From a virus, in IMG/VR virus record IMGVR_UViG_3300046047_000262: DNA of 64,000 bases; one strand, 5' to 3'. A program made the translations under genes and the position numbers. Of this stretch, positions 10,295 through 62,955 are shown piece after piece; the stretch's first letter is position 1, and each line of letters starts with the position of its first letter. The notes below the pieces were generated by a model. The model was not told where the DNA came from, made no database searches, and saw only the letters and a list, made by a program, of their open reading frames with translations.

Positions 10295-11329
10295 TCAATT
10301 ACAATCCATACCAGTAGTATTCTCAAGCCGACCTTTGAATGTATCGAAGTGCGGTTGGTCTTTCCTGGAAGCAACAGCGTTAGGTTTGCTGATTTTCATA
10401 GCAGCAGGGCAAATGTTCACCAATGGACACCATGAACACAATGGTGACGGGTTACAATCATACTTATTACGAGCCAAGCATGAGTCAATAATCAATGAAG
10501 AGGTTTCCACATCCTCGATGACTTTTTTCCGTACAGCCTTATCATGTACAGGAAGAGCCGTGATCTTACCATGTCTGATAACCTCAGGACCCTTCTTAGA
10601 ACCAACATTCTCGAACCATTGGGCGATGGGATACACAAGATTGGCACCTGCCACCGTATATCCTTGTTCTTCCAACAACATTGTGTAAGCAGTCTGTTGT
10701 CTGAGGTAACTGAAATCAGGGAACTTGGCCTTCGGATCATAATCCTTGACTTTCGCACCTGTTTTCCAGTCATCAATGATCAATGATCCATCACTATTAG
10801 TGGAAAGCCTGTCAATAAAACCTAGAGTGTTCCTGCTGGCATTGCCTATCTTACCACTGACGAATAACTCGATACCAGGAACTGTTTTGCCCCAGTCATT
10901 CTTCATGTATGCAATATCAATAGTCTCAGGATGCGTTTTCAGACGCCAGAACCCATTGACGCAGTTCTTCACCCAGTTGCGGGCTTCAGGTGATTCTTTC
11001 ACCGAAGCGAACTCTGGATCCTCCAAAGCCGTATCATATGCTTCTCTAATGGAAGATGAAGTTCGGTTGTCCTTAGGGTACTGAAAGAATACTTCCATGA
11101 TCTTATGGAACGCACTACCAAGCACGTTCGGTGACAATGGATCGGATGGAAGCAGGTCTTTAATCAGATACTTCTCGCTAATGTATTTAGCAGGGCATTG
11201 GAGTACTCCATCGATCATGGAGTTGGAAAGACTGGACTTATTAATGGTATCAACAATATTACTATCGTATATTGATACGCCGTCTTTTTCTATGATGGAT
11301 GTTTCCTGCGGTGTGACAAAACGTCCCAA
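10295..11329 (-). CDS. PD-(D/E)XK exonuclease, Cas4/AddB-like with putative 4Fe-4S cluster
   Basis: QCPAKY, LGSAFH, GFIDRL, IIDDWKTG, QQTAY, C-terminal CSWCPLVNIC. Confidence 0.85.
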   Translation of the reverse strand: MGRFVTPQETSIIEKDGVSIYDSNIVDTINKSSLSNSMIDGVLQCPAKYISEKYLIKDLLPSDPLSPNVLGSAFHKIMEVFFQYPKDNRTSSSIREAYDTALEDPEFASVKESPEARNWVKNCVNGFWRLKTHPETIDIAYMKNDWGKTVPGIELFVSGKIGNASRNTLGFIDRLSTNSDGSLIIDDWKTGAKVKDYDPKAKFPDFSYLRQQTAYTMLLEEQGYTVAGANLVYPIAQWFENVGSKKGPEVIRHGKITALPVHDKAVRKKVIEDVETSSLIIDSCLARNKYDCNPSPLCSWCPLVNICPAAMKISKPNAVASRKDQPHFDTFKGRLENTTGMDCN

Positions 11330-12235: not shown

Positions 12236-12763
12236 TCAGTTACTCCAAGTGTTGTCCTCTTCACCGAAAGGATCATCGAACTCAGAACCACTGAAAGCAT
12301 CGTCAACCTTAGTCTGGACCTTAGGAGCAGACGCTGCTGCAGGAGCAGCAGATTCATGTGTGGCAGCTGACGGTGAATTAGCTGAACCGTTCTTGTTAAC
12401 GGTTGTCGGCCACATGTTCCAATCAGGACCAAGTGCACGAAGGATGATCTGAGCTTCGTTCTTATGTTCTACACCGTTACGATCAGTATATGTGGGCTTC
12501 GGCTGGACATCTCCATTTCCCACAACACGATCACCTGGCTTAGCACTAGCGAGAAGGTTATCAGCTAAACGCCCGAACGCAGTAGCACTCCAATAAGTCT
12601 TATCTTCATCACCTGCTCGTTCCCATTGCTTGGTTTCGTCATTGTACTTGTCTTTCTCAATAACAATCGACAGGTTCACCACAGTCTTTCCCTTGTGCGT
12701 CTTACGCGGTTCACTGATATAGGTAATAGCACCTTGAAGATTCATATTTCCCTGACTAGCCAT
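12236..12763 (-). CDS. ssb: Single-stranded DNA-binding protein (actinobacterial type)
   Basis: OB fold (VVNLSI, ETKQWE, TYWSATAFGRLADN, PGDRVVGNG), acidic tail; start moved to MASQG behind GAAAGGA RBS. Confidence 0.9.
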   Translation of the reverse strand: MASQGNMNLQGAITYISEPRKTHKGKTVVNLSIVIEKDKYNDETKQWERAGDEDKTYWSATAFGRLADNLLASAKPGDRVVGNGDVQPKPTYTDRNGVEHKNEAQIILRALGPDWNMWPTTVNKNGSANSPSAATHESAAPAAASAPKVQTKVDDAFSGSEFDDPFGEEDNTWSN

Positions 12764-12862
12764 GTTGTACATCCTTTCATTACTTATGTTATTTTCTTAT
12801 TACCCCGAAGGGTATTATCATTATACCCAGTTATACGGCTTTTCCTGTTTTTTATATATTTT

Positions 12863-14913: not shown

Positions 14914-16299
14914 TCAGATGAGTTTGACCATATCACCTAATGATTCTATAGTGTCAATCTGAATGTCAACAGATGTTTTCAATGACCGCTTAGCGGATGC
15001 GGGTATGACGACACGTTCAAACCCCAAGCGTGCAGCTTCCTTAATCTTAGATTCCATCAATGATCGACCGCGTATCTTACCCGTCAAAGCGACTTCACCT
15101 ATCCACGCAGTCCGCGTATTGGGTTGATTATCAGCTGCACTGCTGATCACTGCAGCTGCTAGAGCCAAGTCAGCATTCGGATCACCTATCTGGACTCCTG
15201 ATATGGTACTCACGAACACGTCTGATTGACCTAATGAACATGACGGGACGTACTTCGAACAAGCCGCTATAAGAATGCGGCCACGATTGGTATTGTAACC
15301 ACTGAATTGACGTTGTGGTGACCCATATGCCGCATCAGCCACCAAAGCATTGATCTCTACGGGGAGTATCCTATTACCATCCTGTATGAATGTCTTAGCA
15401 GAACCTGCTATCAGTTCATTCATATCACCGATCAGGTATTCTGACGGGTCATCAACTGATTTCAACCCGTCATCCTCATGGACGAACACCGCGACCTCAT
15501 CGGTTTTACCATAACGGTTCTTTTGACTACGAAGGAATTTCAACCGTGTTTCCTTATCAGCATCACCAATAAAGATCGTATCAACCACATGGGCGATCTG
15601 ATTGCTACCAGCGACCTCATCTGACTTCGTGAACTGTGATATCAGGATGAACGCTACATCATTGTCCTTAGCATATTGTTTGAAGGATATGGCCGCTTCT
15701 TTTGATTGAGATACACCACCGATTGTCCCATCGACGGCATTCGAAGCCATGGTCTGCAATGAGTCAACAACCACGAACTCGGCATCATCATCAGTAGCAT
15801 GAGAGAACACGTCCTCGACTATCGTAGTGGACATGATACGAAGATGATCATCATTAATATGAAGCCTACGTGCACGCTGAGCGATCTGATGAGCGGATTC
15901 CTCACCTGATGCGTACAAGCAGTTGTATCCTTGTGATGACAGATTGCCAAGAACCTCCAATGCTAACGTGGATTTACCGAATCCAGGCTCAGCACCTATC
16001 AGGATTACCTGGCCTGGTAATATACCACCATCAAGAATACGATCAAACTCAGAGATATCCGTACTCACTCTGGGGATATCCTCATCAGAGAGACTATTCA
16101 CTGTATATGCTTTGGTATTGGATACATATGATGACTTCTTGCTGGCATTGACCCTCATACCAGCTGAAGGCTTTACCGAAGCACTCTCAGATTCCCTATG
16201 TACCGCAGTACCATAAGCCCCACACTCAGGGCATATCCTGAATTCCATGATAGCGGTTTTCCCGCAAGCCGAACATTCCCAACCGATACTATTAGACAT
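14914..16299 (-). CDS. radA: DNA repair protein RadA/Sms
   Basis: Zn finger CSAC..CPEC, GAEPGFGKST, YASGEES, VVDSLQT, KNRYG, Lon-like C-terminal domain; start moved to MSNSIG. Confidence 0.95.
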   Translation of the reverse strand: MSNSIGWECSACGKTAIMEFRICPECGAYGTAVHRESESASVKPSAGMRVNASKKSSYVSNTKAYTVNSLSDEDIPRVSTDISEFDRILDGGILPGQVILIGAEPGFGKSTLALEVLGNLSSQGYNCLYASGEESAHQIAQRARRLHINDDHLRIMSTTIVEDVFSHATDDDAEFVVVDSLQTMASNAVDGTIGGVSQSKEAAISFKQYAKDNDVAFILISQFTKSDEVAGSNQIAHVVDTIFIGDADKETRLKFLRSQKNRYGKTDEVAVFVHEDDGLKSVDDPSEYLIGDMNELIAGSAKTFIQDGNRILPVEINALVADAAYGSPQRQFSGYNTNRGRILIAACSKYVPSCSLGQSDVFVSTISGVQIGDPNADLALAAAVISSAADNQPNTRTAWIGEVALTGKIRGRSLMESKIKEAARLGFERVVIPASAKRSLKTSVDIQIDTIESLGDMVKLI

Positions 16300-16305
16300 A
16301 TCATT

Positions 16306-16314
16306 ATTATACCA
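16306..16314 (-). promoter_or_regulatory. Class A extended -10 (TGGTATAAT), leaderless radA
   Basis: Exactly 6 nt before ATG at 16299. Confidence 0.75.
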
Positions 16315-16363
16315 AAAATGGGTACCACCCATATCAGGTAGTACCCATGAGAAGGATTGGTGC

Positions 16364-20727: not shown

Positions 20728-22263
20728 TCAATTGGTACCTGAGGAAGATATCGACGCATCCGACGCAACATAATACTGGTACGGTTGGATGTCCTTGATA
20801 AGGTATTTCTTATCGGAAATAGGTTTCACGTACAATATATACTTGCTCTGGTATCCTATAGAACTATCCCCTGTAACAGTGTCTTTCCAAGCTACTGTTA
20901 CCAATGCTCGATAGTAACCATCATTATTAACAGGACCATATATCTTATAGGAGAGATCGCCCGCACGTGATACCAGACCATTCATACCTTGTAACGCCGC
21001 GGAAGTGCGGTCAGGTGTAGTCATAGTGCTTAACGTGGATTGTTTGGATGATGCCCATGCATCCATGTAATCGGTGAGCGTCTGAGTCATAGGAGTAGTC
21101 TCTTTACTCTTATCCTCTTGTCCATCTCCCGGTAGTTTGGTATCAGGGGCATTAGCCTGTTGTATTGTCTTTATATCAGGAATGATATTAGGTGAATCCT
21201 TTGATATCAGGAACGAATCCGATTTTGAGTCATAGTACACACCGACGTCAAAAAACATCCACTTATAGATGACATTGCCCTCACCATCCTTGACCTGTGC
21301 GCCAGATGTCGTATCAACCTGATAGACTAATGCACCTATAGTATAATCACCTGTTTTTGGTGTCAATGACTTACTGGAATACACGTATGGGCCGTATTCG
21401 ATACGCTGTCCGACGTTACCAGTGATATTAGCATTCCCTAATGTAGTAGCACCTTGACTGGATTGAGCATCAGCAGATGTCTTACCATTATAGAATACAT
21501 CAAGCAACTTTGAAGAAGAAGCATCTCCACCAAGCATAAGGTATGCTTGCATGAACTGCGTAGCAACACCTTGACCACGTGTTAAAGGGAACCCCGTGTC
21601 GCCATATTCAGCTGACGCTATAGACTGCACATCAGATTCAGTAAGTTCCTGTTTCGGTACGATGACATTGAAGATGGCTAATCCGACTATCACAATAACA
21701 ACCGCAATGATAAATATTCTGAATATATTAGCCTGTTTACGTCGATCGATCTTCTTATCGGAGTTATCCTCCATAGAGGTTTTCCTAGAATGCCTTTTAT
21801 CAACCGTATCGTTCTTCAGATTCTTTTCAAGCTGTTTCTTAACTTTCTTGCGTTTAGTATCAGCGATTTCACTATTCCGCTTCTCAGCAGCTAACTTAGC
21901 TTCCTGAATTTCACGATTAAGATCGTCCTGAGATGGAAGGTCATCATCAACAGAAGATTTATCCTCAGTATCCTCAGTTGTACTATCTGGTTCCGTAATG
22001 TCATCATCAATGAGATCATCATCGATCGAAGAATCATGCTCATCCAAAAGCTCTGTATCGTGAGATTGATCATCCTGTTCCTGATCATCATTGAAATAGT
22101 TGATATCATCACCATCAAGTGAGTCATCTGAAAACAAACTGTCATCATCGTCCGCAGACGGCTCACTTGCATTAAAATCAAGTGAAGGCAACTCATCGCC
22201 CTCATCAAGTTCTACTCTGACCTGATCATCATCCTGATTGGTTCTTCTTCTTGGTAGTGCCAT
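20728..22263 (-). CDS. Conjugal transfer protein TcpC-like (VirB8-like) with long acidic N-terminus
   Basis: One TM then two NTF2-like domains (FPLTRGQGVATQFMQAYL; TLTDYMDAWAS; ALVTVAW; YQSKYIL). Confidence 0.7.
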   Translation of the reverse strand: MALPRRRTNQDDDQVRVELDEGDELPSLDFNASEPSADDDDSLFSDDSLDGDDINYFNDDQEQDDQSHDTELLDEHDSSIDDDLIDDDITEPDSTTEDTEDKSSVDDDLPSQDDLNREIQEAKLAAEKRNSEIADTKRKKVKKQLEKNLKNDTVDKRHSRKTSMEDNSDKKIDRRKQANIFRIFIIAVVIVIVGLAIFNVIVPKQELTESDVQSIASAEYGDTGFPLTRGQGVATQFMQAYLMLGGDASSSKLLDVFYNGKTSADAQSSQGATTLGNANITGNVGQRIEYGPYVYSSKSLTPKTGDYTIGALVYQVDTTSGAQVKDGEGNVIYKWMFFDVGVYYDSKSDSFLISKDSPNIIPDIKTIQQANAPDTKLPGDGQEDKSKETTPMTQTLTDYMDAWASSKQSTLSTMTTPDRTSAALQGMNGLVSRAGDLSYKIYGPVNNDGYYRALVTVAWKDTVTGDSSIGYQSKYILYVKPISDKKYLIKDIQPYQYYVASDASISSSGTN

Positions 22264-28356: not shown

Positions 28357-29514
28357 CTAATCCACTGGTTCCCCATCCTTCCTGTTATCGGAAAGAGACA
28401 ATGGAAGGCACATGATGTACACCGAGTCATCAATGGTACCATCGGCTTTCAACTGCTTCCAAATGATAGCCTGAGTACGCCCCGAACCGATGAAGAACAC
28501 TTGAACGGAATCCTCATTGATCGCTGATAGCGTCTCTTTAATGACTTCATATGAGAACGCGAAACGATAATCACCAGTAAACGTTGCTGACGTGATATCC
28601 AAAGAGGAATGAACGATATCACCCTTATTATAGACATCCAAGGAATCAGGCCTAATATGGAGGTATACATCATTGCTGATCTCGGCAAGCACTGCGGCGG
28701 TATCCACCAATGAGATCAACTGTTTCACTGGTACGATGAATGATTGTTCATCATCCCTGTTCGATTGAAGCAAGGCATCATAATTAATCGTCACATCAAC
28801 GACCTTATTAACCGTCGCGGTAGCCCCATTATAGAAGCTGAACAACACACTGGAATTCGACTCGGAAAGATCAACAGTACCAGAATCCTTCAGTGAGTTC
28901 AGTTTCCTGACATCATCACCAGTAATCAGGAATCTGCGATCCTTCTTCTCCTTGTCAGACGAGTACTGAATACGGCGAGTCGAGAACGCGAACCTATCAG
29001 TGGCCATGATGGTGATGCCGTCATCGGTATCCACGGTGAAATCAAGTGAAGCAAGATTTGGCCTGCTTGACTTAGGATCAGTGATAGGGGAAAGGTACTT
29101 GGCGGCATCAAAGAGATCCTGGGATGAAACCGTACCGATAGGCTCGAACTTCTTCGCTGTCTTACGCACGTTGACCGCACCTGACAACACTGGAATCTTC
29201 ACTTTGATACCAGCATGGAACACCATATTGGCACCATCAGGTTCAACAACGACCTCCTCGCCCATGAACCTGTCCACGGCTTTTTTCAGGACTTCCGCTG
29301 ATAGTTCGTATGGTGCCACATCACTGGCATCGGAAAGATCGCCTGAGAGATCGAACGTTCGTTCGCCGTTCATGGAGATGGCTGAGAACACCGTGTTACC
29401 AGTATCCTTGTTCACATCCATACGGATCGTTGAGTTGATGTTCTTCGCATCAACTACATCCAGTACCCATTTCACCGCCTGAGTGAATCCATCTAATGGG
29501 AATGTTATCTTCAT
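28357..29514 (-). CDS. dnaN: DNA polymerase III beta sliding clamp
   Basis: 385 aa three-domain pattern, MATDRFAF motif, YIMCLP near C-terminus. Confidence 0.8.
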   Translation of the reverse strand: MKITFPLDGFTQAVKWVLDVVDAKNINSTIRMDVNKDTGNTVFSAISMNGERTFDLSGDLSDASDVAPYELSAEVLKKAVDRFMGEEVVVEPDGANMVFHAGIKVKIPVLSGAVNVRKTAKKFEPIGTVSSQDLFDAAKYLSPITDPKSSRPNLASLDFTVDTDDGITIMATDRFAFSTRRIQYSSDKEKKDRRFLITGDDVRKLNSLKDSGTVDLSESNSSVLFSFYNGATATVNKVVDVTINYDALLQSNRDDEQSFIVPVKQLISLVDTAAVLAEISNDVYLHIRPDSLDVYNKGDIVHSSLDITSATFTGDYRFAFSYEVIKETLSAINEDSVQVFFIGSGRTQAIIWKQLKADGTIDDSVYIMCLPLSLSDNRKDGEPVD

Positions 29515-51407: not shown

Positions 51408-53861
51408 TCACTCTGCTGTTGATCTAACGAATTGAACCTGGAAATAACTGATACCCGAGTTCAGGCTGGTATCCAGAGTGTTTGTGGTCTTCGCACCAGT
51501 ATTATCATGGAACAAATCGGTATAATCAGGATACGAAGCAGTCCTATCATACTGTGCGTAACACTTACCGTCACTTGTTGTGGTTATTGACTTATAAGTG
51601 GTATTCTGATCAGAACCTGTGAATGTGAAGGACGATGGTACATTAACCGCATTGTCAGCATTGTATTCCCACTTGACGTTGAACTTCAATGGCTTATTAG
51701 CATCTGAAGCCCACGTTGACTTGATCTTAAACGAAGTAACCTGACCTGACAACGTGACTGCATTGCCACCATTGAATGCTGATGCGGACGTAGGTGATAC
51801 CTGCGATGATGCCACCCCATCATCGGAGAACAACTCAGTACCATCGCTAGTCTCCACTTTGGTAATCTGACTTCCATTGACCATCCAAGGAGTACCATCG
51901 GTATTCTTGGTAATAGTAGTGGTCTTTGCAGCAGAACCCGAATAGCTTATACCGTTACCTGTTGATGGATACCATACATCGGATGACATCTTGTTCCAAG
52001 CATTATTACGGAAGAACGTCATGACCGATGAATTACCTGTAGATGAATCAGGCATATTACCCTTATCATCGGAAGCGAACACGGACATACCTGCCGTGGT
52101 AGCACTCTTGGCACCATTGGTACCCACATTGCTGGCACTGCCATTAGCTGTCGAAGCCTGTGGGTCCGCTACGCAATCAAACGGGCATTCCTTAGTGTAC
52201 ACAGGATCATTACTGGCCTTATACGTAGCAGTACTGCCATACGTAGACCAGAAATCGTTAGCATCAACACCATTGGGATGAGACGCATCCTTGACTTGTA
52301 TACCGACCGCAGCCAAGCCCAGTTTCTTAGTGATCCTCGGGAACATGATATCATTATCGGTACCATCGGTAGTGGTAGAGACTTTGCTTTCTAACGATCC
52401 TTGGAACTTGCTTCCACCATTCACGGTTGAGGTATCCTTGGATACATGAGCGCTGACAATATTCTTATAAGCCAGGAAATCCTTACGATCACATAGGATA
52501 TTCAACAAGTAGTAATGTGACACATGTATCCACGAGGTCTCATTATTGGCAACAGGTTCAAGCGATGCCGCGTAACCACTATCAGGGCATCCTTGCAGGT
52601 ACACCGTCCTACTAGTGACTCTATCAGACCCGACACCGCAATTATAACGATTGAACGAACGGTTCCTCAACTCATTAGGCATACCGTTCTTCCAACCGGT
52701 AGATGCCATGTCACGAGTGGTTGCATCCTTCTTCCACGGACTGATATTGATGTTCTCAGGTGACTTATTGCTGACATTACGTGAACAGCCGCTCTCAGAC
52801 ATCTTACAGGTGACAATCTTATATGTTCTGCGAGTATATGTACGATAATAGAAATCGATACCAGGGATCTTATAGGTGATTGTCGCGGGCTGGGCATACT
52901 TAGTGATCTTGAGTATGCCACCCTTAGCAAAATTCTTAATAAGGTCGGAACCAGTATCTATGCTACCAGTTGTTTGAGTGCTGGTTTTGGTTTTATTACA
53001 AGCATCTGTGGCATCATCAACAAGCTGTTCATAACTCTTGTTATCATACTTCCCTGCGGCGACATCCTTCCATACCTGACCATAAGGGGTCAATTGCTTG
53101 TCTCCCTTATTGACGTTAACGGATTGACCATACACGTAACCATCGGTTCCTTCAATGGTGGATGTATAATATACAGGGCATGATGGCATAGTCTTAGTAG
53201 TTGATGTGGCTACTGATGCCAATTCGTAATGTTGCGTATCAGAATCAGTGACGACCTTGTATCCTGTCGGATTAGCATCATCAAAGTTCAATGCAACACA
53301 TGCAATGGACAGGTTATTAGCATTCGCGGCATTACGAAGAGCGGTTCTTATGGCATTCTGTAGATCGCCGTCATATCCGCTGAGACCTCCTACTTTTGAG
53401 CCCCAATTCCTATCAACACCAGAGACAAGAACACCTTGACCGACGCCATACAGGGTTTTCTTATAATAAGGAGCCCCCTCTTGTTTCGTGTTGATCACTA
53501 CACCTACCACTTTAGCAGGGTTATTGGCACTTTGCGGCGTGTTATTGATGGCAGCCTGGCATACACTATCGAACTTCGCATAGCTTACTGATGAACTGAT
53601 CCCAGTCTGTGCTCTCAACTGATGGATTGATGCACTCCCCCATGAAGTATTATTATTCAGGAAAAGTTCGACGTTACCACCTGCACCACCGGAACCGCCG
53701 CCAGTGTTTCCACTATTGCCCGTTCCTATGTTATATGCTGATGATGATTGCATCGCCCCCATTATGGCTATGAACAATGTCATAACAAAAACACAGAACC
53801 ATATCAGTCCTCTGCTGTTGTGTTTCATATTCAAATAGTTCATGATTCCATCCTCACTCAT
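51408..53861 (-). CDS. Large secreted Cys-containing putative pilus adhesin
   Basis: Signal-like N-terminus, Gly/Thr/Ser-rich, many Cys; directly upstream of tadE/tadG; exact start uncertain. Confidence 0.6.
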   Translation of the reverse strand: MSEDGIMNYLNMKHNSRGLIWFCVFVMTLFIAIMGAMQSSSAYNIGTGNSGNTGGGSGGAGGNVELFLNNNTSWGSASIHQLRAQTGISSSVSYAKFDSVCQAAINNTPQSANNPAKVVGVVINTKQEGAPYYKKTLYGVGQGVLVSGVDRNWGSKVGGLSGYDGDLQNAIRTALRNAANANNLSIACVALNFDDANPTGYKVVTDSDTQHYELASVATSTTKTMPSCPVYYTSTIEGTDGYVYGQSVNVNKGDKQLTPYGQVWKDVAAGKYDNKSYEQLVDDATDACNKTKTSTQTTGSIDTGSDLIKNFAKGGILKITKYAQPATITYKIPGIDFYYRTYTRRTYKIVTCKMSESGCSRNVSNKSPENINISPWKKDATTRDMASTGWKNGMPNELRNRSFNRYNCGVGSDRVTSRTVYLQGCPDSGYAASLEPVANNETSWIHVSHYYLLNILCDRKDFLAYKNIVSAHVSKDTSTVNGGSKFQGSLESKVSTTTDGTDNDIMFPRITKKLGLAAVGIQVKDASHPNGVDANDFWSTYGSTATYKASNDPVYTKECPFDCVADPQASTANGSASNVGTNGAKSATTAGMSVFASDDKGNMPDSSTGNSSVMTFFRNNAWNKMSSDVWYPSTGNGISYSGSAAKTTTITKNTDGTPWMVNGSQITKVETSDGTELFSDDGVASSQVSPTSASAFNGGNAVTLSGQVTSFKIKSTWASDANKPLKFNVKWEYNADNAVNVPSSFTFTGSDQNTTYKSITTTSDGKCYAQYDRTASYPDYTDLFHDNTGAKTTNTLDTSLNSGISYFQVQFVRSTAE

Positions 53862-54877
53862 TGCTGTTGAACAGTATCTATCAATATTCGGCGGGATGAC
53901 GCCGATGCGTGATTATAATTTGGTACGTATCGTATGGTGAGATGTTTTTGTTCGGTGGCTTTTGAACCGTCTGATTTGATAAATGTATACGTTACAGGAG
54001 TAGAACACGTAATGGAATCTCCTGAAACCGCTTTAATGTCATAATTACAAGTTATATCAGAGATTACACCGATAGCCCATGGGTATGGTGAATTCGTGGT
54101 CTTACCACCGAAGTCATCCTTAGCCCAATCAGCCTCCAATGGAATAATGCTCTTAGCCGTATTCTCATCCTGAGTAGCGATAGCGTTGACACGATCATCA
54201 GCGAACATATTCGTAAAGGAATTCAACGGTGACGGCAAAGTGCTGTCATGATCACCAATACGATACTTGCTCTGTAACGCCGTCCAATCGCCATAGATAG
54301 GATTGACAATCCTTTCCATATCGTCTCTTACCTGTTCGGTCACGTTCTCAGCAGTCAGGAAACTATACTCGGGATTCGTAGTGCCATCAGAAAGTTCAGC
54401 TTTCGAAGTATCATCAGTAAGATTACTATCGGTTGCTTTTGAAAGCAACGCACTTGATGCGTTCTCAGGCATTGCAGCATCTGCGGCGGCATTCGCTGTT
54501 TTCCTGTCCGCATCGGATATCTTAGTAGAGGATTGCTGATAATACGAGGGGATTCCCATACCACCAAGATAATCGGTGGTTGAAGCACTAGAGGATGTGT
54601 CACTTGCAGAACCCTTGGACAAGGAGTTGGAAACAGAGCTCTGTTCCTTCTTTACCGAATCAGTATTGATCTTACCGAATACGATACCGCCGATAATCAA
54701 ACCTGCAATCAATATGACAGTAAAACCACCAAGGAAATACCACATTTTACTATGCGATGACTGGACAGGTTCATCCTGACCTATCACATCATTATCATCA
54801 CCAAGGAGTTGATCCTCTTCATTTTCCTGGTCGTGATTATCATCGTTATCTTTTTTGAACATGCGGAATCCTTTCAT
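53858..54877 (-). CDS. Single-TM protein with acidic N-terminus and extracellular domain
   Basis: TM MWYFLGGFTVILIAGLIIGGIVFG; coupled to the adhesin gene. Confidence 0.7.
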   Translation of the reverse strand: MKGFRMFKKDNDDNHDQENEEDQLLGDDNDVIGQDEPVQSSHSKMWYFLGGFTVILIAGLIIGGIVFGKINTDSVKKEQSSVSNSLSKGSASDTSSSASTTDYLGGMGIPSYYQQSSTKISDADRKTANAAADAAMPENASSALLSKATDSNLTDDTSKAELSDGTTNPEYSFLTAENVTEQVRDDMERIVNPIYGDWTALQSKYRIGDHDSTLPSPLNSFTNMFADDRVNAIATQDENTAKSIIPLEADWAKDDFGGKTTNSPYPWAIGVISDITCNYDIKAVSGDSITCSTPVTYTFIKSDGSKATEQKHLTIRYVPNYNHASASSRRILIDTVQQQ

Positions 54878-54927: not shown

Positions 54928-55182
54928 TCATATGCCAAAAGCTACACGGAAACCCCATATGAACAATAATGCTATAGCACCTATCAATGCCAATGAGAAA
55001 ACCACAGTAACAATAGCCTGTATTATGGCTATGATCCGTCGGTTATCCGTCGCTGTCTTCATGATTTTCTTAACTGATTTCGAATCAGTGTGACGATCAT
55101 CAATCTGTACTGGTTCACGTTTAGGACGATCAGCCCACTCAGTGTTATCAAAATCAAAATTCAATCCACCCATAATCATCAC
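54928..55182 (-). CDS. Small membrane protein
   Basis: 84 aa with C-terminal TM; overlaps upstream stop. Confidence 0.6.
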   Translation of the reverse strand: MMIMGGLNFDFDNTEWADRPKREPVQIDDRHTDSKSVKKIMKTATDNRRIIAIIQAIVTVVFSLALIGAIALLFIWGFRVAFGI

Positions 55183-55751
55183 CCCTTATCAGAATTGACT
55201 ATCTGTCCAAGAATATCTTTCTTATCAATGACATAAGTATTACCTTTATGGCATGAACCTCCTGTACAGACAACGAGATACTGATTCGTAAGCCATCCCC
55301 TATCGGGCATGGAAGCAGGAACCTTGGTCTTCGTAGCCACATCATCATATAGAAGCTTTCCGTCTGAGGATAATGTCAATCGACCAGCAGGACCTGCTAC
55401 AATACGCATCGTGCTTACATCTGATTGCAAGGTCGTGCCAAGCGTAAGCTTTGAAAGCGGGTTCGCCAGCATGTCACGATTATCATTGATACGTGCGATA
55501 ATATGAGTGTTCTTAGGAATAGCACCTGAACGAAGGTCAGGGTCCTTAGTCAACACTACGCCTACGGAATCCGTAACCACGAATCTAGCAGCGGTAGTGA
55601 CTATGCAACCAAGGTAAAAGACGATGACTACGACGAGAATCCCCAACACGTATCCAACTGATTTCAATAAAGTCTGTCTAATGGCATAGCTCGTCTTCAC
55701 TTGGACTTTCGGACTAGTATACGCCTCGTTATGATCAGCTACATCACTCAT
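55179..55751 (-). CDS. Degenerate S26 signal-peptidase/TraF-like protein
   Basis: MRIVAGPAG (cf. KRVIGLPGD), GKLLYD, NQYLVVC, ILGQI; catalytic Lys apparently replaced. Confidence 0.5.
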   Translation of the reverse strand: MSDVADHNEAYTSPKVQVKTSYAIRQTLLKSVGYVLGILVVVIVFYLGCIVTTAARFVVTDSVGVVLTKDPDLRSGAIPKNTHIIARINDNRDMLANPLSKLTLGTTLQSDVSTMRIVAGPAGRLTLSSDGKLLYDDVATKTKVPASMPDRGWLTNQYLVVCTGGSCHKGNTYVIDKKDILGQIVNSDKG

Positions 55752-55780: not shown

Positions 55781-56998
55781 TCAGATGTCCTTCGCATAGA
55801 AATCCGACGTGTAATGATGAGCAGGAGCATTGGAGAATGATGCTCTTTTCGCAAAACCTATGGCATCAAGAAGATGTGCATGAAGACTTGATGATGATAC
55901 CATCGCACCCATGGTATTGAATCTTCGCTTGTTCTCTCGCATCCCCAATACTGAGAACAGCATCTTGTACATATTCAAAGCCTGCTGGAACCCATTCTTA
56001 GTCCATACGCCCCTAGACTTGGCCTCACATACCAGTGTTGGCACAAAGATAGTCCGTTCTGGAGATGAGTAATCATTAGTACCAGTGAACAAGGCAGGCA
56101 CACTATACCCGACTACGAACGCCATGAATGAGCGGATATGACCTGAATCATCTACCGATACGACAAAATGGGCATCCTCTATCAACGAATCAACGTATTT
56201 GACCACATCACCTTGTTCACCTGTGAACAATGACTGCATGTATGTAAGACGCTCAGTGATTGGCGGTTCCAACCAATTCGAATACTTACGGCAGAATGCA
56301 ATCAGTGCAAGATACTGTTTGGAGCCATGTTCTATCCTACCAATGAACCTGACGGTACCGCCTGTTTTGATTGGTATGGGCTGGATGGTACTCTGTACTA
56401 ACGGACGCATACCCTTGACATTTGCTTTGCCGACATTGGGTAAAGGCATCGCTATTGAATCCTTACCAGTGTTCTCGTCAACTGATTTAATGCGTTTGAT
56501 CAAAGCTTTACCCGATGAGTTACGACGTAACCCCTCGTTGATCAGAGCGTTCTCAATATGCTTCGCGATGATAGGATTCAACTGTGAATCCATTGATATC
56601 ATGAGATCAATGGTCTTGGTTTTGTTCTTGCGGCGTTTATCCATGGCGGCGTTCTTTTTCAAGACGTATTGTGACATCAACCGTATACAAGTGGATAACC
56701 TCGAAAAGGTTATCCTTGATGATGGATCAATAAGAACATAATCAATGGATACGACCGTATGTGACGGATTCTTCTTTTCCTTACCAATACGAAAAAGAAA
56801 CGCTATTGACCAGAACTCGTTCTGACCGTCGATGTTCTTACATACCAAAGCCTTATAACCATCGGATGCGATACCATATGGCGTCGGATAATTCACTGCT
56901 TCAAGATGGTATCTCGCGAAGGAACGTGAAAGATCCCTGAGTAGTCTCAGGTATACGACCTTAGACAAATCAGAGATAAGTTCATACCGAATTTTCAT
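55781..56998 (-). CDS. Putative tandem GNAT-fold protein
   Basis: VSIDYVLID in N-half; FVPTLVC..SRG, LDAIGF in C-half; AAGGAG RBS. Confidence 0.45.
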   Translation of the reverse strand: MKIRYELISDLSKVVYLRLLRDLSRSFARYHLEAVNYPTPYGIASDGYKALVCKNIDGQNEFWSIAFLFRIGKEKKNPSHTVVSIDYVLIDPSSRITFSRLSTCIRLMSQYVLKKNAAMDKRRKNKTKTIDLMISMDSQLNPIIAKHIENALINEGLRRNSSGKALIKRIKSVDENTGKDSIAMPLPNVGKANVKGMRPLVQSTIQPIPIKTGGTVRFIGRIEHGSKQYLALIAFCRKYSNWLEPPITERLTYMQSLFTGEQGDVVKYVDSLIEDAHFVVSVDDSGHIRSFMAFVVGYSVPALFTGTNDYSSPERTIFVPTLVCEAKSRGVWTKNGFQQALNMYKMLFSVLGMRENKRRFNTMGAMVSSSSLHAHLLDAIGFAKRASFSNAPAHHYTSDFYAKDI

Positions 56999-57034
56999 AT
57001 AATCTCCTTTGGCTTCACATATGATTAATATCGG

Positions 57035-58480
57035 TCATCCTGAATATGAAGTCACTGTCATAGCAGCGGCCAATGATTCCTTAAACCCATCGGATATACA
57101 GGATGAAAGATCCGACATCAGAGCGTTAGCCAATGTTCGATGACCTGAAAGTAATCTCAGAATGATCAAAGCACTAGTATAATCACCAGTATCATTGGCG
57201 GCTATGATCACAGCGTTCTGTACACGATTACTACGTTCGGCATCATCAATAGTGGAATCGTTCTCCATGATGTACTCAACTGAAGGCTCTGAGTTACCAG
57301 TCTGCTTCTCCTCGTTTGTCCCGTCCCACTGTAAGGTAGTGGTCTTGCGTGTGGATTGCCATACTCGTAATTGCGAATTCATGTCCACGTACTGTGCGAA
57401 GGATATATCATAATCATTGTCCTCAGCAGACATCTCAGCCCATACCTGATTGTCATCATAGTATTCAATGGATTCATTGCCATCAGTGTTCTTACGTAGC
57501 CTTTTGATGGCCTTGTTCTTCTCAAGCTGGAACTTGTTGATGGTCTTGCCGATCTCATTGTTAGCATAATTGTATGATTGACGCGGCAGGACTCTCATCA
57601 AGTACACACTGAATGGGCGGCAGATCGATTCATCGAAACGTTGGACCAGATTCAGTATCCAAGCGGTAAGCAATGCCTCACCATCATCATCGGTACGCTG
57701 CTTATCGTTCTCATTGCCTTGAGCAGAACTCTCCAAGTACGTGTTGATGGTCTTCTTGATCGCGGGGACAAGCACCACGCTGAACTTTACATAGAATCTT
57801 ACCAGCTCGGCAATGGCCTCATCATTCAGTTGGTTGATCTCACGTCTATTGGACATGTTAAAGGAACTGATCTTAGCGAACATCGTACCCTGTCCACCAT
57901 GAGATTCCTCGAATGTCTTCAGTTTCTCACGGACACAATCTGATGACAAGCAATATATTCTATACGTATCACCATGGTATTCACCACCGATCTCCTCATG
58001 CTTGGTATCCTGTTTCCTGAATCGTCCTATATATCCCATCTCATGCTTGATCTCATTGATATCAGCTCCGATGGCAAGTTGGAAGGTACATATGCCGATC
58101 TTACGTAACGGTGCTGATAGGAACAGTTCCGTTTCGGTCATACGATGGGTGCCGCGACCGAAAATCCTCGGGTATAGGATCTTGTCTATAAGCTGGGCTT
58201 CAATGGGTATCCCATTACTTTTACGCCATGTTTCCAATTGTTTAAGAGACATACGATACGATATGCCGCCATTATCAGTGGTGATGGCATCCTTATCCAT
58301 CAGATCGCTGATGATGGATGCCATAGTGTCATCATCCTTGATCTTCACTAAGGTCTTGATCTTATCGGGATTATACCATTGGCCATCACTGAGAACAGCA
58401 GCGACCCTGAACTCAGGTTCAAAAGTCATGAATTGTTCACGAGACCATAGTGGTGTCGTCTTCTTGAAATACCCATTCAT
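57035..58480 (-). CDS. Divergent sigma-70-like factor with N-terminal winged-HTH-like extension
   Basis: AWILNLVQRFDESICRPFSVYL..LPRQSYNY resembles region 2; NKAIKRLRKN..YYDDNQVWAEM region 3-like; alternative start at 58537. Confidence 0.55.
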   Translation of the reverse strand: MNGYFKKTTPLWSREQFMTFEPEFRVAAVLSDGQWYNPDKIKTLVKIKDDDTMASIISDLMDKDAITTDNGGISYRMSLKQLETWRKSNGIPIEAQLIDKILYPRIFGRGTHRMTETELFLSAPLRKIGICTFQLAIGADINEIKHEMGYIGRFRKQDTKHEEIGGEYHGDTYRIYCLSSDCVREKLKTFEESHGGQGTMFAKISSFNMSNRREINQLNDEAIAELVRFYVKFSVVLVPAIKKTINTYLESSAQGNENDKQRTDDDGEALLTAWILNLVQRFDESICRPFSVYLMRVLPRQSYNYANNEIGKTINKFQLEKNKAIKRLRKNTDGNESIEYYDDNQVWAEMSAEDNDYDISFAQYVDMNSQLRVWQSTRKTTTLQWDGTNEEKQTGNSEPSVEYIMENDSTIDDAERSNRVQNAVIIAANDTGDYTSALIILRLLSGHRTLANALMSDLSSCISDGFKESLAAAMTVTSYSG

Positions 58481-58496
58481 ATGGATGGTGTTCCTC

Positions 58497-58814
58497 TCAC
58501 AATATTTCGATATGCGGTAACAGTGATGCTTTATCATGGAATAATTGCTTCATACCATCGAAAAGCCTACTATTCTCGAATACATCGTCGTCAACAGGAC
58601 TGATTACATAGGTTCGTTCCACCATACGTTCAACATCAATATGGCTTTTGCCCTCATATGATGCGGTACCGCCGAACACAGTAAGAATGGAATCGGGAAT
58701 ATCATCATCAGCGATGTCAGTATCCGATTGATACGTGAATACCCTGAGCTTACGAACGGGCTCAACATGTGGCTTGTCCGAAGTGTCATCAATTGTGGAC
58801 ATTAGATCGATCAT
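58497..58814 (-). CDS. Hypothetical protein
   Basis: 105 aa, coupled between DUF3566 and the sigma-like gene. Confidence 0.6.
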   Translation of the reverse strand: MIDLMSTIDDTSDKPHVEPVRKLRVFTYQSDTDIADDDIPDSILTVFGGTASYEGKSHIDVERMVERTYVISPVDDDVFENSRLFDGMKQLFHDKASLLPHIEIL

Positions 58815-59290
58815 TTATCACTCCCTTTGTTATTATTATCAACTGTAACCTTCAGCCCACCAACGAATGCCGAAGCCGCATTGTACAGTATTACCGTGAG
58901 CACACCGAAAACAGTGAGAACAATGATCAGGAAAACTGAGAATCCCGCTGACAAGCCGATCAGACCATTCTTGGATAACTCCAGAACACCACCAAGCAAA
59001 GCATTCAGCTTTGATAGGAACCCTAATGAGTCCAATGCGGTAATACCAAGGAACAACACCAGGAACGTCGCCAGACCCCATCCTATAGACATGATGAATG
59101 AGACCAACGCCGCCCTGCCGACACCTATGCTCGATGCTAACACCTGATGCGAACGCGTAATCGGCGTATCAACGATTACGTCTACGTCACTATCACTTGT
59201 AGTATCAGCGTCAGGAATCACAGTATCCATGATCTTACTATTACTTGATGCGGTTACCCTAGGTTTTCTTTGACCATTGTTATTGCCCAT
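58811..59290 (-). CDS. DUF3566-family membrane protein
   Basis: ALVSFIMSIG..LDSLGFLS..ILYNAASAFVGGLKVTV; start moved to MGNNN. Confidence 0.75.
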   Translation of the reverse strand: MGNNNGQRKPRVTASSNSKIMDTVIPDADTTSDSDVDVIVDTPITRSHQVLASSIGVGRAALVSFIMSIGWGLATFLVLFLGITALDSLGFLSKLNALLGGVLELSKNGLIGLSAGFSVFLIIVLTVFGVLTVILYNAASAFVGGLKVTVDNNNKGSDK

Positions 59291-59296
59291 ATCATC

Positions 59297-59305
59297 ATGA
59301 TACCA
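59297..59305 (-). promoter_or_regulatory. Class A extended -10 (TGGTATCAT), leaderless DUF3566-sigma operon
   Basis: Exactly 6 nt before ATG at 59290. Confidence 0.7.
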
Positions 59306-59366: not shown

Positions 59367-60182
59367 TCAGTATACTCGTGCTATCGTGTACGCACCTGGG
59401 AATCCTGATAATGGGGAAATAATCGTACCCTTCCTAGGACTCGCGGCATTCATCACCATACCATTACCTATGTAAATGGCGGCATGCTGACTGTTAGCGA
59501 TGATGTCACCAGGCATCATCTGCCCTTGCGGTATAGTTACACCAACGTTTGCCTGAGCACCAGATACCCTTGGTAACGTGATACCGAAATGAGCGAACAC
59601 ATACTGTACGAACGCCGAGCAATCCCAACCATCGGTAGGGGATGTGCCACCATACACATAAGGTCTACCGACGAACTGTACCGACCACATGGCGATCTGC
59701 TGACCACGGGTCTGCTGATCCGTTGACAAGGTGGGAACAGCTGTCACAGTTGGTGAAGACCCTGCGGATGATGCTGATGTCGTACCATCCGATGCGGGAT
59801 CTGATCGTGTATAGTTCCTACTGACAGTATTGTTCGAAGCTGCGACGGCAGCACTTTGAGCTTGCTCGCGGGCTTGCTGATCGGCAGCATCCTGAGCGGC
59901 TTTCGCCTGAGCATCGGCAGCAGCCTGTTTCTCAGCAGTGGATTGAGTCTTCGGGACGCTCATGGTCTCACTGACCCATTCACCATCGCCTACAGTGGAA
60001 ACGGATATGGATTCAGATAACAGATCCTTATGTGGTTTATCACGCACGGGAAACGATGCCATAGCGGTCACGGTCTTACCATGAGTGGATGCCAATGCGG
60101 TGGTTGATGACAATCCCATGGTTACGAATGAACCTATGATGACAGGGATGCTAATAAGAGTTCCATATAATTTATGCTTCAT
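59367..60182 (-). CDS. Secreted NlpC/P60 (C40) peptidoglycan endopeptidase
   Basis: GRPYVYGG, WDCSAFVQYV, HAAIYIG; signal peptide, Ala/Gln coiled-coil linker. Confidence 0.92.
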   Translation of the reverse strand: MKHKLYGTLISIPVIIGSFVTMGLSSTTALASTHGKTVTAMASFPVRDKPHKDLLSESISVSTVGDGEWVSETMSVPKTQSTAEKQAAADAQAKAAQDAADQQAREQAQSAAVAASNNTVSRNYTRSDPASDGTTSASSAGSSPTVTAVPTLSTDQQTRGQQIAMWSVQFVGRPYVYGGTSPTDGWDCSAFVQYVFAHFGITLPRVSGAQANVGVTIPQGQMMPGDIIANSQHAAIYIGNGMVMNAASPRKGTIISPLSGFPGAYTIARVY

Positions 60183-60275
60183 AATAAGTATAGCGTTGAA
60201 CCAACCGCATCTTACGAGTCATAGGACCCGCGGTAATCCTTTCCCCCGGCGAATGTTATGTATGTTAGTATACCA
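60183..60275 (-). promoter_or_regulatory. Extended -10 promoter (TGGTATACT) and structured ~78-nt leader of the NlpC/P60 gene
   Basis: Promoter at 60267-60275; nested hairpin 60198-60239 (ACCGC/GCGGT, CGGGTC/GACTCG). Confidence 0.5.
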
Positions 60276-60297
60276 TACTCATTATGAATATCGTATA

Positions 60298-62955
60298 TCA
60301 TGACAATATCGGCTCATCAGTACCGAAATACCGCATAGCATCCTTGATTGATGATGCCCTCTGACTGGATGAAAGAATACTATCAGCATCCTCCCTGGCA
60401 ATACCGATCCACTTAGCATGAAGCATGAGATCAGCGAACCTGAGATCAGTGGTACCAGATTGCTGGGTACCGAACAACGAACCCGTTCCCCTAGTCTTCA
60501 TATCCTCCTTCGACAGTTTCCAACCATCAAGAGTATCAACTAATGATTGTAACCTTCTCTGGGCATTAACATTGAACGGCATGGCCACAAGATAGCATCG
60601 TGATGGCAACGAACCCCTACCGATTCGACCACGAATCTGATGAAGAGAAGCCAAACCGAACCTGTTCGCATCCAATACGATCATCCTAGTGGCCTTATCA
60701 CAGGACACACCTACCTCCACTACCGATGATGCTACCAGCACGTTAACGGTACCGTTCTTGAAATCCTCGATGACCTTATCCTGCTCGACCTTCTTCTGTG
60801 AACCGTATACCACACCGACATTGACATCAGGCATCAACTCCTGCATACGTTTATAGGTCTTCTTCACACTGGCGGCATCGATCTTATCATTATCCGATAC
60901 CATAGGAGCAACGATGAACGTTCCATGACCAAGAGACGATTCCCTACGGATATCAGACCACAGCTCACAATCAGCATCATCGAGAACAGTTTGACCCTTC
61001 TGCTTCAACCATGTAGTCACAATAGGTTGGCGACCTGCAGGTAATTCATCCAAAGCGATGTATGATATGTCACCATAGTATACTTGGGCCATACTTCTGG
61101 GAATAGGTGTAGCAGTCTGCATCAACATATCAGGAACCCTACCATCATCACGTATCTCAAGTAGCCTGTTACGCTGTGAAGCACCGAACTTATGCTGCTC
61201 ATCCACACCGACGAATGTAAGATCATGGTACTGCAAGTTCAATACCGCATGTGTACCGAAGATCACGTTGGCATCACCGTTCTCAATGTTACCAATGTTC
61301 TCCCTTCTCTTAGCAGCCGAACCCTTGCCCTTATACGTAGCATGGAACACAGGATGTATTCTCGATGACGCCGCGGCGGGCATTCTTTCAAGGATACTCA
61401 TGAACGTATCATATAACTGACGGGCAAGAATCTCCGTAGGAGCACAGATGACTGCCTGATGACCTGCATTCACCGCCGCTAACGCCGCCATATGCATCAC
61501 CGTGGTCTTACCTGAACCGACATCGCCGACAAGCAGAGCATGCATCCTGGAATCAGCGGACATTCCCGAGCACAAGAGTTCCACAGCATGATGCTGGGCA
61601 TGCGTCAACGCATAAGGCAACACGTTCTCATAATCCTTCACCAAGGACAGATCGGATGGCTGGGAAATACCTTTAATGACACCTTCGCCATGCCGTTCGT
61701 TCTCAATGAGAATCATTAATTGCACCAGTTCGCAGAACGCAAGAACCTCTGTTGCCTGGCTAATCGACGCATTGTTATCAGGGAAATGCATGCTTTTCAA
61801 CGCGGAACCATAACTCATGGAACCAATGCTATGCTTATGTAAGAGTTCTTCCGACCATGATGGTCCGACGAATCCGTCACCAAGCCGACTGACGAGTTCC
61901 TGTGTACAATACATGATGATATTCGGTGACAACCCGAATCTTGGCGGTGAATTGTATACAGGGATGACACCCATGACACCATCCACATCCACGAAATCAA
62001 AGTCGGGTTGTGCTAACTGTGCGTACTGATGCCCATGGAAATCCTTGATCTGATATGAACCTGTGGCAATGACCTCATCATCGACCTTGAACTTCTTCTG
62101 CATCCATAAAGCATTGAAGAACGTACAATCAATGGATTCCCCATGACTATCCGTCAATGAGATGATCAGGAGCTTGGAAAAGGTCTTGAACCCTTGGATA
62201 CGACCAATCACCGTAGCCGACTCACCAGGAATCAGATCCTGTATGTACTGCGGTTCGGTCTTATTGATGTACTTCCTTGGCGAGTAGAAGATAAGATCAT
62301 ACAGATCGTTCACCCCGATCATATGGAATTTATCCTCAATCGATGATCTATTCGTTTTCAAAGCACTGAACGATTGTATGTTACCCTGTACGACATGAAG
62401 CAAGGATAATGGCATACCCCTAAGCGAATCAGCGGTACCATCATAAGGTGGTGGAAGCAATTCGTTAGCATTGGTCAACACGATGTCATCAATGATCATC
62501 CTAGCGGGCTTCGGTAATGACGCTTCCAGAATAATGAAATCCCGCACCCTGTTGACAGGTATCGACCATGAACCATCGGAACGACTGGAAGCCCATAACC
62601 TACGCATCATATCCTGATACAAGGGTATCCTAGGTGCCTGAACGATCACACGCTGCGACTGCTCATCCAATGACGCGTGCGGTCGTGGCAATGAACCAGC
62701 AAGTTCAGCCAGTCTCGACTTGATGCCTTCATCCGCGAAAGTAAGCATCATGCCATCATGGGTCATCGATGCGAGCACGTATCGTAAAGCCAACGCGGGC
62801 ACAGGAGCCTCAACGAACTTATACTGCCAACGACCACCGAACGGCATGGACGAAGTAAACGTCGGTATGCCCCTGAACGACGCATCGGCATCGAAATCAG
62901 TGGTAACCAGTATGTGTTCACTAGCTATTCCAACGAATATTCTACCTTGGGTCAT
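60298..62955 (-). CDS. recG: ATP-dependent DNA helicase RecG with N-terminal extension
   Basis: GDVGSGKT, APTEILARQ, DEQHKFG, ATPIPRS, FGLASLHQIRGRIGRG, RGTGSLFGTQQSG. Confidence 0.93.
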   Translation of the reverse strand: MTQGRIFVGIASEHILVTTDFDADASFRGIPTFTSSMPFGGRWQYKFVEAPVPALALRYVLASMTHDGMMLTFADEGIKSRLAELAGSLPRPHASLDEQSQRVIVQAPRIPLYQDMMRRLWASSRSDGSWSIPVNRVRDFIILEASLPKPARMIIDDIVLTNANELLPPPYDGTADSLRGMPLSLLHVVQGNIQSFSALKTNRSSIEDKFHMIGVNDLYDLIFYSPRKYINKTEPQYIQDLIPGESATVIGRIQGFKTFSKLLIISLTDSHGESIDCTFFNALWMQKKFKVDDEVIATGSYQIKDFHGHQYAQLAQPDFDFVDVDGVMGVIPVYNSPPRFGLSPNIIMYCTQELVSRLGDGFVGPSWSEELLHKHSIGSMSYGSALKSMHFPDNNASISQATEVLAFCELVQLMILIENERHGEGVIKGISQPSDLSLVKDYENVLPYALTHAQHHAVELLCSGMSADSRMHALLVGDVGSGKTTVMHMAALAAVNAGHQAVICAPTEILARQLYDTFMSILERMPAAASSRIHPVFHATYKGKGSAAKRRENIGNIENGDANVIFGTHAVLNLQYHDLTFVGVDEQHKFGASQRNRLLEIRDDGRVPDMLMQTATPIPRSMAQVYYGDISYIALDELPAGRQPIVTTWLKQKGQTVLDDADCELWSDIRRESSLGHGTFIVAPMVSDNDKIDAASVKKTYKRMQELMPDVNVGVVYGSQKKVEQDKVIEDFKNGTVNVLVASSVVEVGVSCDKATRMIVLDANRFGLASLHQIRGRIGRGSLPSRCYLVAMPFNVNAQRRLQSLVDTLDGWKLSKEDMKTRGTGSLFGTQQSGTTDLRFADLMLHAKWIGIAREDADSILSSSQRASSIKDAMRYFGTDEPILS

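Follow-up and report, generated by a model that had tools for sequence, protein, structure and literature searches.

We examined a stretch of 64,000 nucleotides (nt) from the IMG/VR virus record IMGVR_UViG_3300046047_000262, called the window below, which comes from a bioreactor-sludge metagenome and is part of a contig of ~170 kb. The subject of the analysis is a gene for a protein of 481 amino acids (aa), P0005, in which a first-pass annotation had seen by eye a sigma-70-like factor that might switch on transfer genes. All credible genes of the window are carried by the minus strand. The open frame around the sigma-like gene runs from 57035 to 58537; translation probably begins at the ATG at 58480, with a GAGG 12 nt 5' of it. 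The gene had been placed third in a tightly coupled operon headed by a DUF3566 membrane protein gene and starting at a class A promoter, and this arrangement is what we found. The DUF3566 frame, which most plausibly begins at the ATG at 59290, is preceded by the extended -10 element TGGTATCAT; its stop is joined in an ATGA overlap with the ATG of a gene for a 105-aa acidic protein, and 16 nt separate the stop of the latter from the sigma start. An NlpC/P60 hydrolase gene lies upstream, at a distance of 22-76 nt from the DUF3566 gene, and a 405-aa gene lies downstream. The 405-aa gene is present in every related locus, and a Pfam search with its product gave no match. The coordinates of all features are collected in Table 1.

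The relation to sigma factors was evaluated at the level of the protein family. A word-indexed search gave 13 relatives (alignment A1), and a profile was then searched against 1.84 billion representative sequences. The resulting family, clustered at 50% identity, has 114 clusters, of which 93 score E <= 1e-10. None of the clusters has a name, and almost every one has a length of 400-540 aa. The shallow profile A1 returned only noise, and no sigma factor, from the PDB. When 102 full-length members were scanned individually against Pfam, Sigma70_r3 (PF04539) was matched by 27 of them (best E 4.7e-9) and Sigma70_r2 (PF04542) by 21 (best E 4.3e-5), and no other Pfam family recurred; weak region 4 matches (E ~0.02) appeared in only two. 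For the C-terminal half, residues 210-481 and the corresponding parts of the relatives, a profile (A3) was compared with every PDB sequence; 40 of its 41 matches are sigma factors. E. coli FliA scored highest (E 3.8e-7), followed by Streptomyces WhiG (5e-6), Aquifex FliA (1.8e-5) and SigF (3.8e-5), and the matches, which range to 1e-3, also include SigB and the SigA proteins of several phyla (from E 6e-5). All alignments keep a single register, which begins at region 2.2 and continues through region 3.1. Against NCBIfam, the distant member P0088 matched FliA_WhiG (TIGR02479) with E 1.9e-11 and 44 bits, ahead of SigB/F/G, and language-model neighbours include SigF and Sigma70_r2 clusters.

The peptide that had originally been compared with region 2 corresponds to residues 273-294. 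Around it, the family consensus W-I-x2-A-x2-K-Y-D-E-x3-V-P-F-S-x-Y-L-x3-L-x2-W-x-Y-D-L reads recognisably as regions 2.2-2.3. The likeness seen by eye therefore has two sides: taken as a single sequence it stays below the statistical threshold, whereas the family profile places it well above chance. One could still propose that an unrelated helical protein resembles a sigma factor by accident, since the single sequence has no significant match and middling Z-scores are common with helical folds. Such an accident would have to produce 40 sigma factors among 41 PDB matches in a single register, down to E 3.8e-7, as well as Pfam matches to region 2 or region 3 at E < 1e-3 in dozens of family members, and the structural search described below, which uses no sequence, concurs with them. 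We consider it extremely improbable. Residues ~213-379 are homologous to sigma2 and sigma3, and we are highly confident that the 481-aa protein is a sigma homologue.

The architecture was delineated with AlphaFold2 (AF2) models, evaluated by the predicted local distance difference test (pLDDT). The full-length model has a pLDDT of 77, while the model of residues 210-481 made with the 102-sequence alignment reaches 87.5. The long N-terminal extension resembling a helix-turn-helix, which the first-pass annotation had remarked on, appears in the model as a winged helix-turn-helix (wHTH) at residues 14-92. It aligns with MarR/ArsR-type domains over ~70 residues (VIA-align; Z 7-8.3, root-mean-square deviation (rmsd) 2-3 A). 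Together with the alpha/beta domain that follows, it has the same order as Lrp/AsnC, a winged helix and then an alpha/beta sandwich, but this likeness is confined to a Foldseek match that is not significant (E 0.02, probability 0.85); there is no sequence signal, and a profile of the N-terminal half (A5) found no match among PDB sequences. The N-terminal module is the best-conserved part of the family, with the DGQWY and SYR motifs and E116.

In the sigma2 domain, the region 2.2 helix spans residues 257-281 and the PFSxY block includes P289, F290 and Y293. A structure of sigma-28 shows a region 2.3 Tyr stacking on the flipped A at -11 (PMC12784957); this Tyr aligns with the near-invariant Y293, and K312 stands in the place of the Arg with which sigma-28 recognises the upstream GC. 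The region-3-like segment noticed earlier is confirmed by the PF04539 matches within the family, and G311, F317, Q318 and K321 are invariant in it. The disordered linker that follows contains the motif L-x-W-x(2)-T-x-E, of which L383, W385, T388 and E390 are conserved in the 13 sequences of A1; from its position only, we infer that it stands where the region 3.2 'finger' would. The remaining 75 residues occupy the place of sigma4, and their mean column identity is 15%. Here the earlier remark that no clear region 4 is present holds: the profile of this part (A6) retrieved no sigma factor from the PDB at E up to 10, and the best fold matches of the domain are RbcX and aIF2-alpha (Z 5-7), not sigma4. 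Region 4 is also absent from some accepted members of the sigma family.

Table 1. Genes, protein domains and sequence signals, with positions in the window or, where a locus number is given, in related elements.
Feature	Position	Strand	Basis or remark
Sigma-like gene, 481 aa + stop (protein P0005)	57035..58480	(-)	ATG start at 58480
Winged helix-turn-helix, residues 14-92, family-invariant DGQWY and SYR motifs	58205..58441	(-)	AF2, pLDDT ~90
Alpha/beta domain, residues 116-212	57845..58135	(-)	AF2 secondary structure
Sigma2 domain, residues 213-309	57554..57844	(-)	A3 profile against PDB, VIA matches
Sigma3 domain (regions 3.0-3.1), residues 310-379	57344..57553	(-)	PF04539 in family; FliA/WhiG alignments
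Disordered linker, residues 380-406	57263..57343	(-)	pLDDT below 50
Variable C-terminal domain of 4-5 helices at the place of sigma4, residues 407-481	57038..57262	(-)	AF2
DUF3566 membrane protein, operon gene 1	58811..59290	(-)	PF12089, E 9.7e-7
105-aa acidic protein, operon gene 2, C-terminal LPHIEIL	58497..58814	(-)	Open reading frame (ORF)
NlpC/P60 hydrolase gene, conserved upstream neighbour	59367..60182	(-)	PF00877, E 1.8e-21
Conserved 405-aa gene downstream of sigma	55781..56998	(-)	46% identity to positional equivalent in G001, E 1e-140
Class-A extended -10 TGGTATCAT, 6 nt before DUF3566 ATG	59297..59305	(-)	Sequence
Class-B motif aCCGATATT directly after sigma stop, 28 nt before 405-aa gene	57027..57033	(-)	Sequence
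Tandem promoter cluster GCCGATATT, CGATATT and class-A-like TGGTATACT, upstream of NlpC/P60, at RecG stop	60267..60311	(-)	Sequence
Beta sliding clamp	28357-29514	(-)	DNA_pol3_beta_2, E 5e-7
SbcD-like	4402-5655		
ThyX	5666-6733		
DnaB	8722-10245		
PD-(D/E)XK nuclease	10295-11329		
Single-stranded DNA-binding protein (SSB)	12236-12772		
RadA-like	14914-16332		
RpoD-like 276-aa sigma in G001	L007:202-1032		TIGR02997, E 6e-26
Third, weak sigma-like ORF in G001	L008:3-1040		
249-aa FliA/WhiG-like sigma of canonical architecture in L005	L005:17377-18126		TIGR02479, E 9e-34
Equivalents of the 105-aa protein	L001:8070-8699; L009:1877-2245; L010:5666-6001; L003:8897-9883; L005:9687-10004		Position conserved

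The model of the C-terminal half was compared with 48,161 representative chains by exhaustive structural alignment (VIA). The best match is S. aureus SigB, with Z 8.6 and an rmsd of 4.3 A over 151 residues (model 3-183, SigB 21-176), and SigB is the only chain to reach Z >= 8. Next in rank are HrdB (7.4), FliA (6.9), sigmaS (6.8), sigma-28 (6.7) and then Thermus sigmaA and sigma-32, so that sigma factors make up nine of the top 12 matches. The sigma2 domains of extracytoplasmic function (ECF) factors match residues 4-100 of the model at Z 5-6, and only long alignments of high rmsd, with sigma-28, sigmaA and sigma-32, extend through the C-terminal domain. The sigma2 fold, which had been proposed as the structural check on the first reading, is present in the predicted model, and the structural matches give moderate agreement with the sequence evidence without being an independent proof. 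With the whole 481-residue model, Foldseek listed only weak wHTH and Lrp-like rows at the top, and sigma-32 had rank 35.

Contact with core RNA polymerase was modelled as a complex of the C-terminal half with residues 200-340 of B. subtilis beta', which may not be the beta' of the host. The complex scored 0.42 while the best control scored 0.00; for calibration, the pass mark is reached by 58 of the 80 complexes with solved structures and by 2 of the 110 pairs that are mismatched. The confident contacts connect sigma residues 265-280, in the region 2.2 helix, with beta' residues 259-287, the clamp helices, and this is the canonical sigma-core interface. Modelling against the clamp helices, likewise proposed earlier as a check, gave weak support: the interface is the expected one, yet the score falls within the range of 0.60 or under, where 7 of the 80 solved complexes lie together with both passing mismatches. 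The complex model shows a likeness to sigma-core binding, not the binding itself.

These results also bear on whether the protein, although derived from a sigma factor, has ceased to be an initiation factor and acts as a wHTH DNA-binding regulator or as an RNA polymerase-binding modulator or decoy. Such a role would suit a protein whose best-conserved part is the N-terminal module, which has lost sigma4, whose sigma signature in the window's member is too weak for Pfam and whose predicted complex with beta' scores weakly. What it leaves hard to explain is that ~100 divergent clusters have retained the linker motif, the helices of region 3, the helix of region 2.2 and the PFSxY block, including the melting Tyr, if there were no contacts with RNA polymerase and promoter. 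The predicted beta' interface is also canonical. We regard this alternative as unlikely; the protein is probably an active initiation factor that binds RNA polymerase.

Two sequence signals precede genes of the window. The class-A nonamer TGGTAYMAT has 25 copies against 4.2 expected, and none of 100 shuffles reached 25. Such nonamers are located 6-9 nt 5' of the start codons of the RecG-like, SbcD-like, SSB and penicillin-binding protein (PBP) genes, among others. No Shine-Dalgarno sequence fits into the gap between promoter and ATG, and so the first genes of class-A units are probably leaderless, as judged from the sequence. The signal recurs as TGGTATCAT/TGGTATAAT before DUF3566 or RecG in two related loci, with GGTATCAT before DUF3566 in L009 and GGTATAAT followed by 6 nt and ATG before RecG in L010. 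A perfect TGGTATAAT also occurs inside the sigma gene (58370-58378, minus strand), where it forms the W-Y-N codons of DGQWY; it is probably a coding coincidence and not an internal promoter.

The class-B heptamer YGATATT is not enriched overall, with 41 copies on both strands and 38 expected. Its placement is far from random: 13 of the 29 gene-strand copies are wholly intergenic, while intergenic sequence makes up 3.8% of the window (binomial P 1.2e-11). On this distribution we take YGATATT to be a genuine upstream signal. Six intergenic copies stand exactly 8 nt before an ATG, which leaves no room for a ribosome-binding site; the genes concerned are TadB-like, TadA-like, 20728-22263, GNAT, 55179-55751 and 53858-54877 (as pair). 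Further copies precede the VirB6-like gene and its neighbours, and the copy directly after the sigma stop faces the 405-aa gene. GCCGATAT occurs once, at 60305-60313. Alignment of 15 YGATATT sites revealed no -35 partner, only an A at -5 and A/T at -4. The -10 consensus of the sigma-28 clade is GCCGATAA (PMC12784957, PMC8325347), and the C-G-A-T-A core of the heptamer agrees with it. Compared with the complete form TAAA-N15-GCCGATAA, the class-B sites have a conserved CGATA(T) core but no TAAA at -35.

The two classes divide the genes of the window in the way the first-pass annotation had supposed. Class-A signals stand before genes of DNA metabolism (RecG, SbcD-like, SSB and PBP), and class-B signals before TadA, TadB, VirB6-like and neighbouring genes. 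This partition fits a two-tier programme without proving it. For the class-A promoters, the reader could be a primary-like sigma of the element itself instead of the host SigA.

Members of the sigma family were found on metagenomic contigs of 75-420 kb with about 39-62% guanine-cytosine (GC) content. A tblastn search of 72,556 PLSDB plasmids with P0005 and the distant members P0088 and P0044 gave no match, nor did one of 50,697 INPHARED phage records with P0005; no relatives were seen in GTDB genomes, in a scan limited to two peptide patterns from close relatives. The gene order around sigma is Replicase, Rce1-like, RecG-like, NlpC/P60, DUF3566, small protein, sigma, 400-aa gene and 190-aa gene, on to PhoH/PIN, and it is kept in L001, L003/G001, L006, L009, L010 and L011. 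Within it, DUF3566 lies upstream of sigma in L001, L006, L009 and L010, and the synteny of NlpC/P60 holds in L001, L003, L006 and L010.

It had been suggested that homologues of the sigma should co-occur with the YGATATT motif in related elements, and the homologues in five of them do accompany the same motif or a variant (C/T)GATA form. In L010 (62.5% GC), TGATATCTTA and TGATATA precede NlpC/P60, and both genes after sigma, including the orthologue of the 405-aa gene, have CGATATT followed by 8 nt and ATG. In L009 (52% GC), GCGATATT and TGATATT lie downstream of sigma, with GCGATATT belonging to the 405-aa-gene orthologue. In G001 (48.5% GC; L003 is its 21-kb locus), GATATCTTA occurs 22 times on the gene strand and twice on the other, compared with 3 and 4 for the controls. 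The distant member L005 (45.6% GC) has intergenic (G/C)CCGATA(A/G) sites, with 8 of 27 CGATA copies in the 8.7% of sequence that is intergenic (P 0.0016), and L011 (38.6% GC) has TTGATAGAT. That an AT-rich heptamer stands at orthologous positions in an element as GC-rich as L010 is a good indication that the signal is functional and conserved.

The signal need not be read by the long sigma itself. The protein may be a true sigma that controls another, smaller regulon, while YGATATT is read by a different sigma, either a host factor of the canonical FliA/WhiG type or a second one that the element encodes. In L005, a 249-aa FliA/WhiG-like sigma exists beside the long one, and the CCGATA sites there fit the canonical sigma-28 -10 best; G001 has, besides the long sigma, an RpoD-like one and another sigma-like ORF; the GC-reading Arg of canonical sigma-28 is replaced by Lys in the long sigma. 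No second sigma gene was found within the window, which is only 64 kb of the ~170-kb contig. A canonical sigma-28, however, needs the TAAA -35 that the class-B motif does not have, and the lack of a -35 fits a factor without sigma4; moreover, the long sigma is syntenic with class-B genes in every element examined. We hold this alternative to be possible but less than probable. As for the long sigma being the reader of YGATATT, the sequence patterns leave the case for and against about level.

Our preferred overall reading, which we hold by a modest margin over its negation, is that the 481-aa product is a functional, highly divergent sigma-70-family initiation factor, descended from the FliA/WhiG (sigma-28) clade or at least closest to it, and specific to giant (~75-420 kb) uncultured conjugative elements. 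The long sigma would be made from the TGGTATCAT extended -10 promoter through a sigma of primary type, which the host or the element could supply. The region 2.2 helix of the long sigma would bind the beta' clamp helices of core RNA polymerase, and the holoenzyme would open promoters consisting of a sigma-28-like -10, (G)C/T-GATATT, with no -35. These class-B promoters would lie 8 nt before the start codon, giving leaderless or nearly leaderless transcripts, or before short leaders, and the Tad-pilus, VirB6-like and neighbouring genes would thereby be turned on. The class-B motifs upstream of NlpC/P60 could add positive feedback: co-transcription of NlpC/P60 and the sigma operon, should it occur, would make positive autoregulation possible.

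Several points weigh against this reading. Single-sequence searches of Pfam, NCBIfam and the PDB with the 481-aa protein gave no match, so its link to sigma factors is transitive, via the family profiles, and hhalign of A3 with one FliA-like sequence found the right register at a probability of only 22%. The SigB Z-score of 8.6 is modest for a helical protein. In the Foldseek list for the C-terminal model sigma factors dominate, yet every E-value is above 0.1, probably because the domain orientations differ. The beta' complex passes weakly, and the prediction may echo sigma-beta' complexes whose structures are already solved. Region 4 was not found, and conservation is dominated by the N-terminal module. 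The class-B motif is without the GC and the final A of GCCGATAA as well as the TAAA -35, and the extra sigma genes of L005 and G001 could read it instead. Finally, the temporal order of the two classes, early and then late, is pure inference.

Among known systems, the first-pass annotation had pointed to T4 gp55, a minimal sigma2-only protein that acts at -10-only promoters and works with gp33 and the gp45 sliding clamp. Both gp55 and the long sigma are sigma-family proteins without region 4, and the long sigma too would use promoters with only a -10-like element. As in the T4 system, the element encodes a beta clamp, and a small protein is encoded beside the sigma. Unlike gp55, the long sigma keeps sigma3, has additional N- and C-terminal domains and shows no similarity to phage records, and its closest relatives are FliA/WhiG. 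As sigma3 is kept, the comparison is a functional analogy at most.

FliA/WhiG/SigD (sigma-28, group 3) is the closest sequence relative at the profile level. The order of sigma2 and sigma3 is alike, the CGATA core of the class-B motif is common with GCCGATAA, and both have ties to genes for surface appendages: in Rubrobacter and Actinoplanes, type IV pili are driven by WhiG-type factors (PMC8325347). The long sigma differs in being twice as long, with a 210-residue wHTH and alpha/beta module in front, in lacking a recognisable sigma4 and, in its motif, the TAAA -35, and in residing on giant mobile elements instead of chromosomes; no anti-sigma of the FlgM or RsiG type was recognised for it. 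The curated cut-off of TIGR02479 is 189.6 bits, and the family stays far below it: its best member, P0088, has 44 bits, P0120 has 26 and P0005 has no match. By this threshold the long sigma is outside the FliA/WhiG subfamily, though distantly related to it at the sequence level. SigN (ZpdN) of the B. subtilis plasmid pBS32 (PMC6751061) resembles it as a plasmid-borne sigma that controls genes of a large plasmid, but SigN has an ordinary short architecture and belongs to the DNA-damage response, whereas the long sigma is linked to transfer genes. We found no sequence relation between the two.

The 105-aa protein is conserved in position and hardly in sequence. BLASTP between its equivalents reaches E of only ~0.1, and what those of five other elements have in common is P-[HQ]-[IVF]-[ED]-[LIV]-[LVF] near the C-terminus; the motifs in the window and the five relatives are LPHIEIL, TPHIELV, LPQVELL, IQFEVF, SPQIDLL and AYVEPL. 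The beta-clamp-binding pentapeptide is QL[SD]LF, and the C-terminal motif of the small proteins looks like it. Judged from its sequence and position, the 105-aa protein could be a co-factor or an anti-sigma. By analogy with gp55/gp33/gp45, one may even speculate that the new sigma subfamily is the dedicated 'late' factor of undescribed giant multi-sigma conjugative elements and reads leaderless, sigma-28-like promoters with only a -10 in a regulon of pilus and transfer genes, and that in these elements the small protein (P-[HQ]-I-E-L-L) and the sliding clamp would replace the -35 contact and couple transfer-gene transcription to replication. We think this quite unlikely as a whole.

Under the preferred reading of a divergent, active sigma factor, a function would be assigned to ~114 'hypothetical protein' clusters that all family libraries have missed. 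It would point to very large uncultured conjugative elements, of 44-62% GC in sludge and other metagenomes, with their own multi-sigma transcription programme, and related giant elements do appear to run such programmes. The strategy of encoding an own sigma is known from phages, and on plasmids from a few cases only, such as SigN of pBS32. The system would offer a compact natural example of initiation free of -35 and flap contacts, together with a new N-terminal module of which the role can be studied, and two simple sequence signals by which early and late genes of such elements can be annotated.

Some observations concern the elements themselves. A 599-aa PF03090 'Replicase' gene lies before the Rce1-like gene in L006 (171-1970), a place just past the high end of the window, and also in L010; from its family assignment it may be the replication initiator of the element. 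G001 is a record of 419,707 bp with terminal repeats, and IMG/VR classifies it as a complete virus. Its matches comprise several FtsK-like ones and an AAA_10 ATPase of VirB4-like type (E 1e-48), but no HK97 capsid or Terminase_6N. A phage identity is the less likely one, and we read G001 as probably a giant conjugative element of plasmid-like type. An identity with the 'Inocles' was also rejected, as those have 24-32% GC and oral Streptococcus hosts (PMC12340149), while GC content in the elements described here is 39-62% and the source of the window is bioreactor sludge. Lastly, a distant branch of the family, the cluster of P0065 with 94 members at 90% identity, occurs on contigs of 270-380 kb from many samples, which points to a widespread, recurrent giant element.

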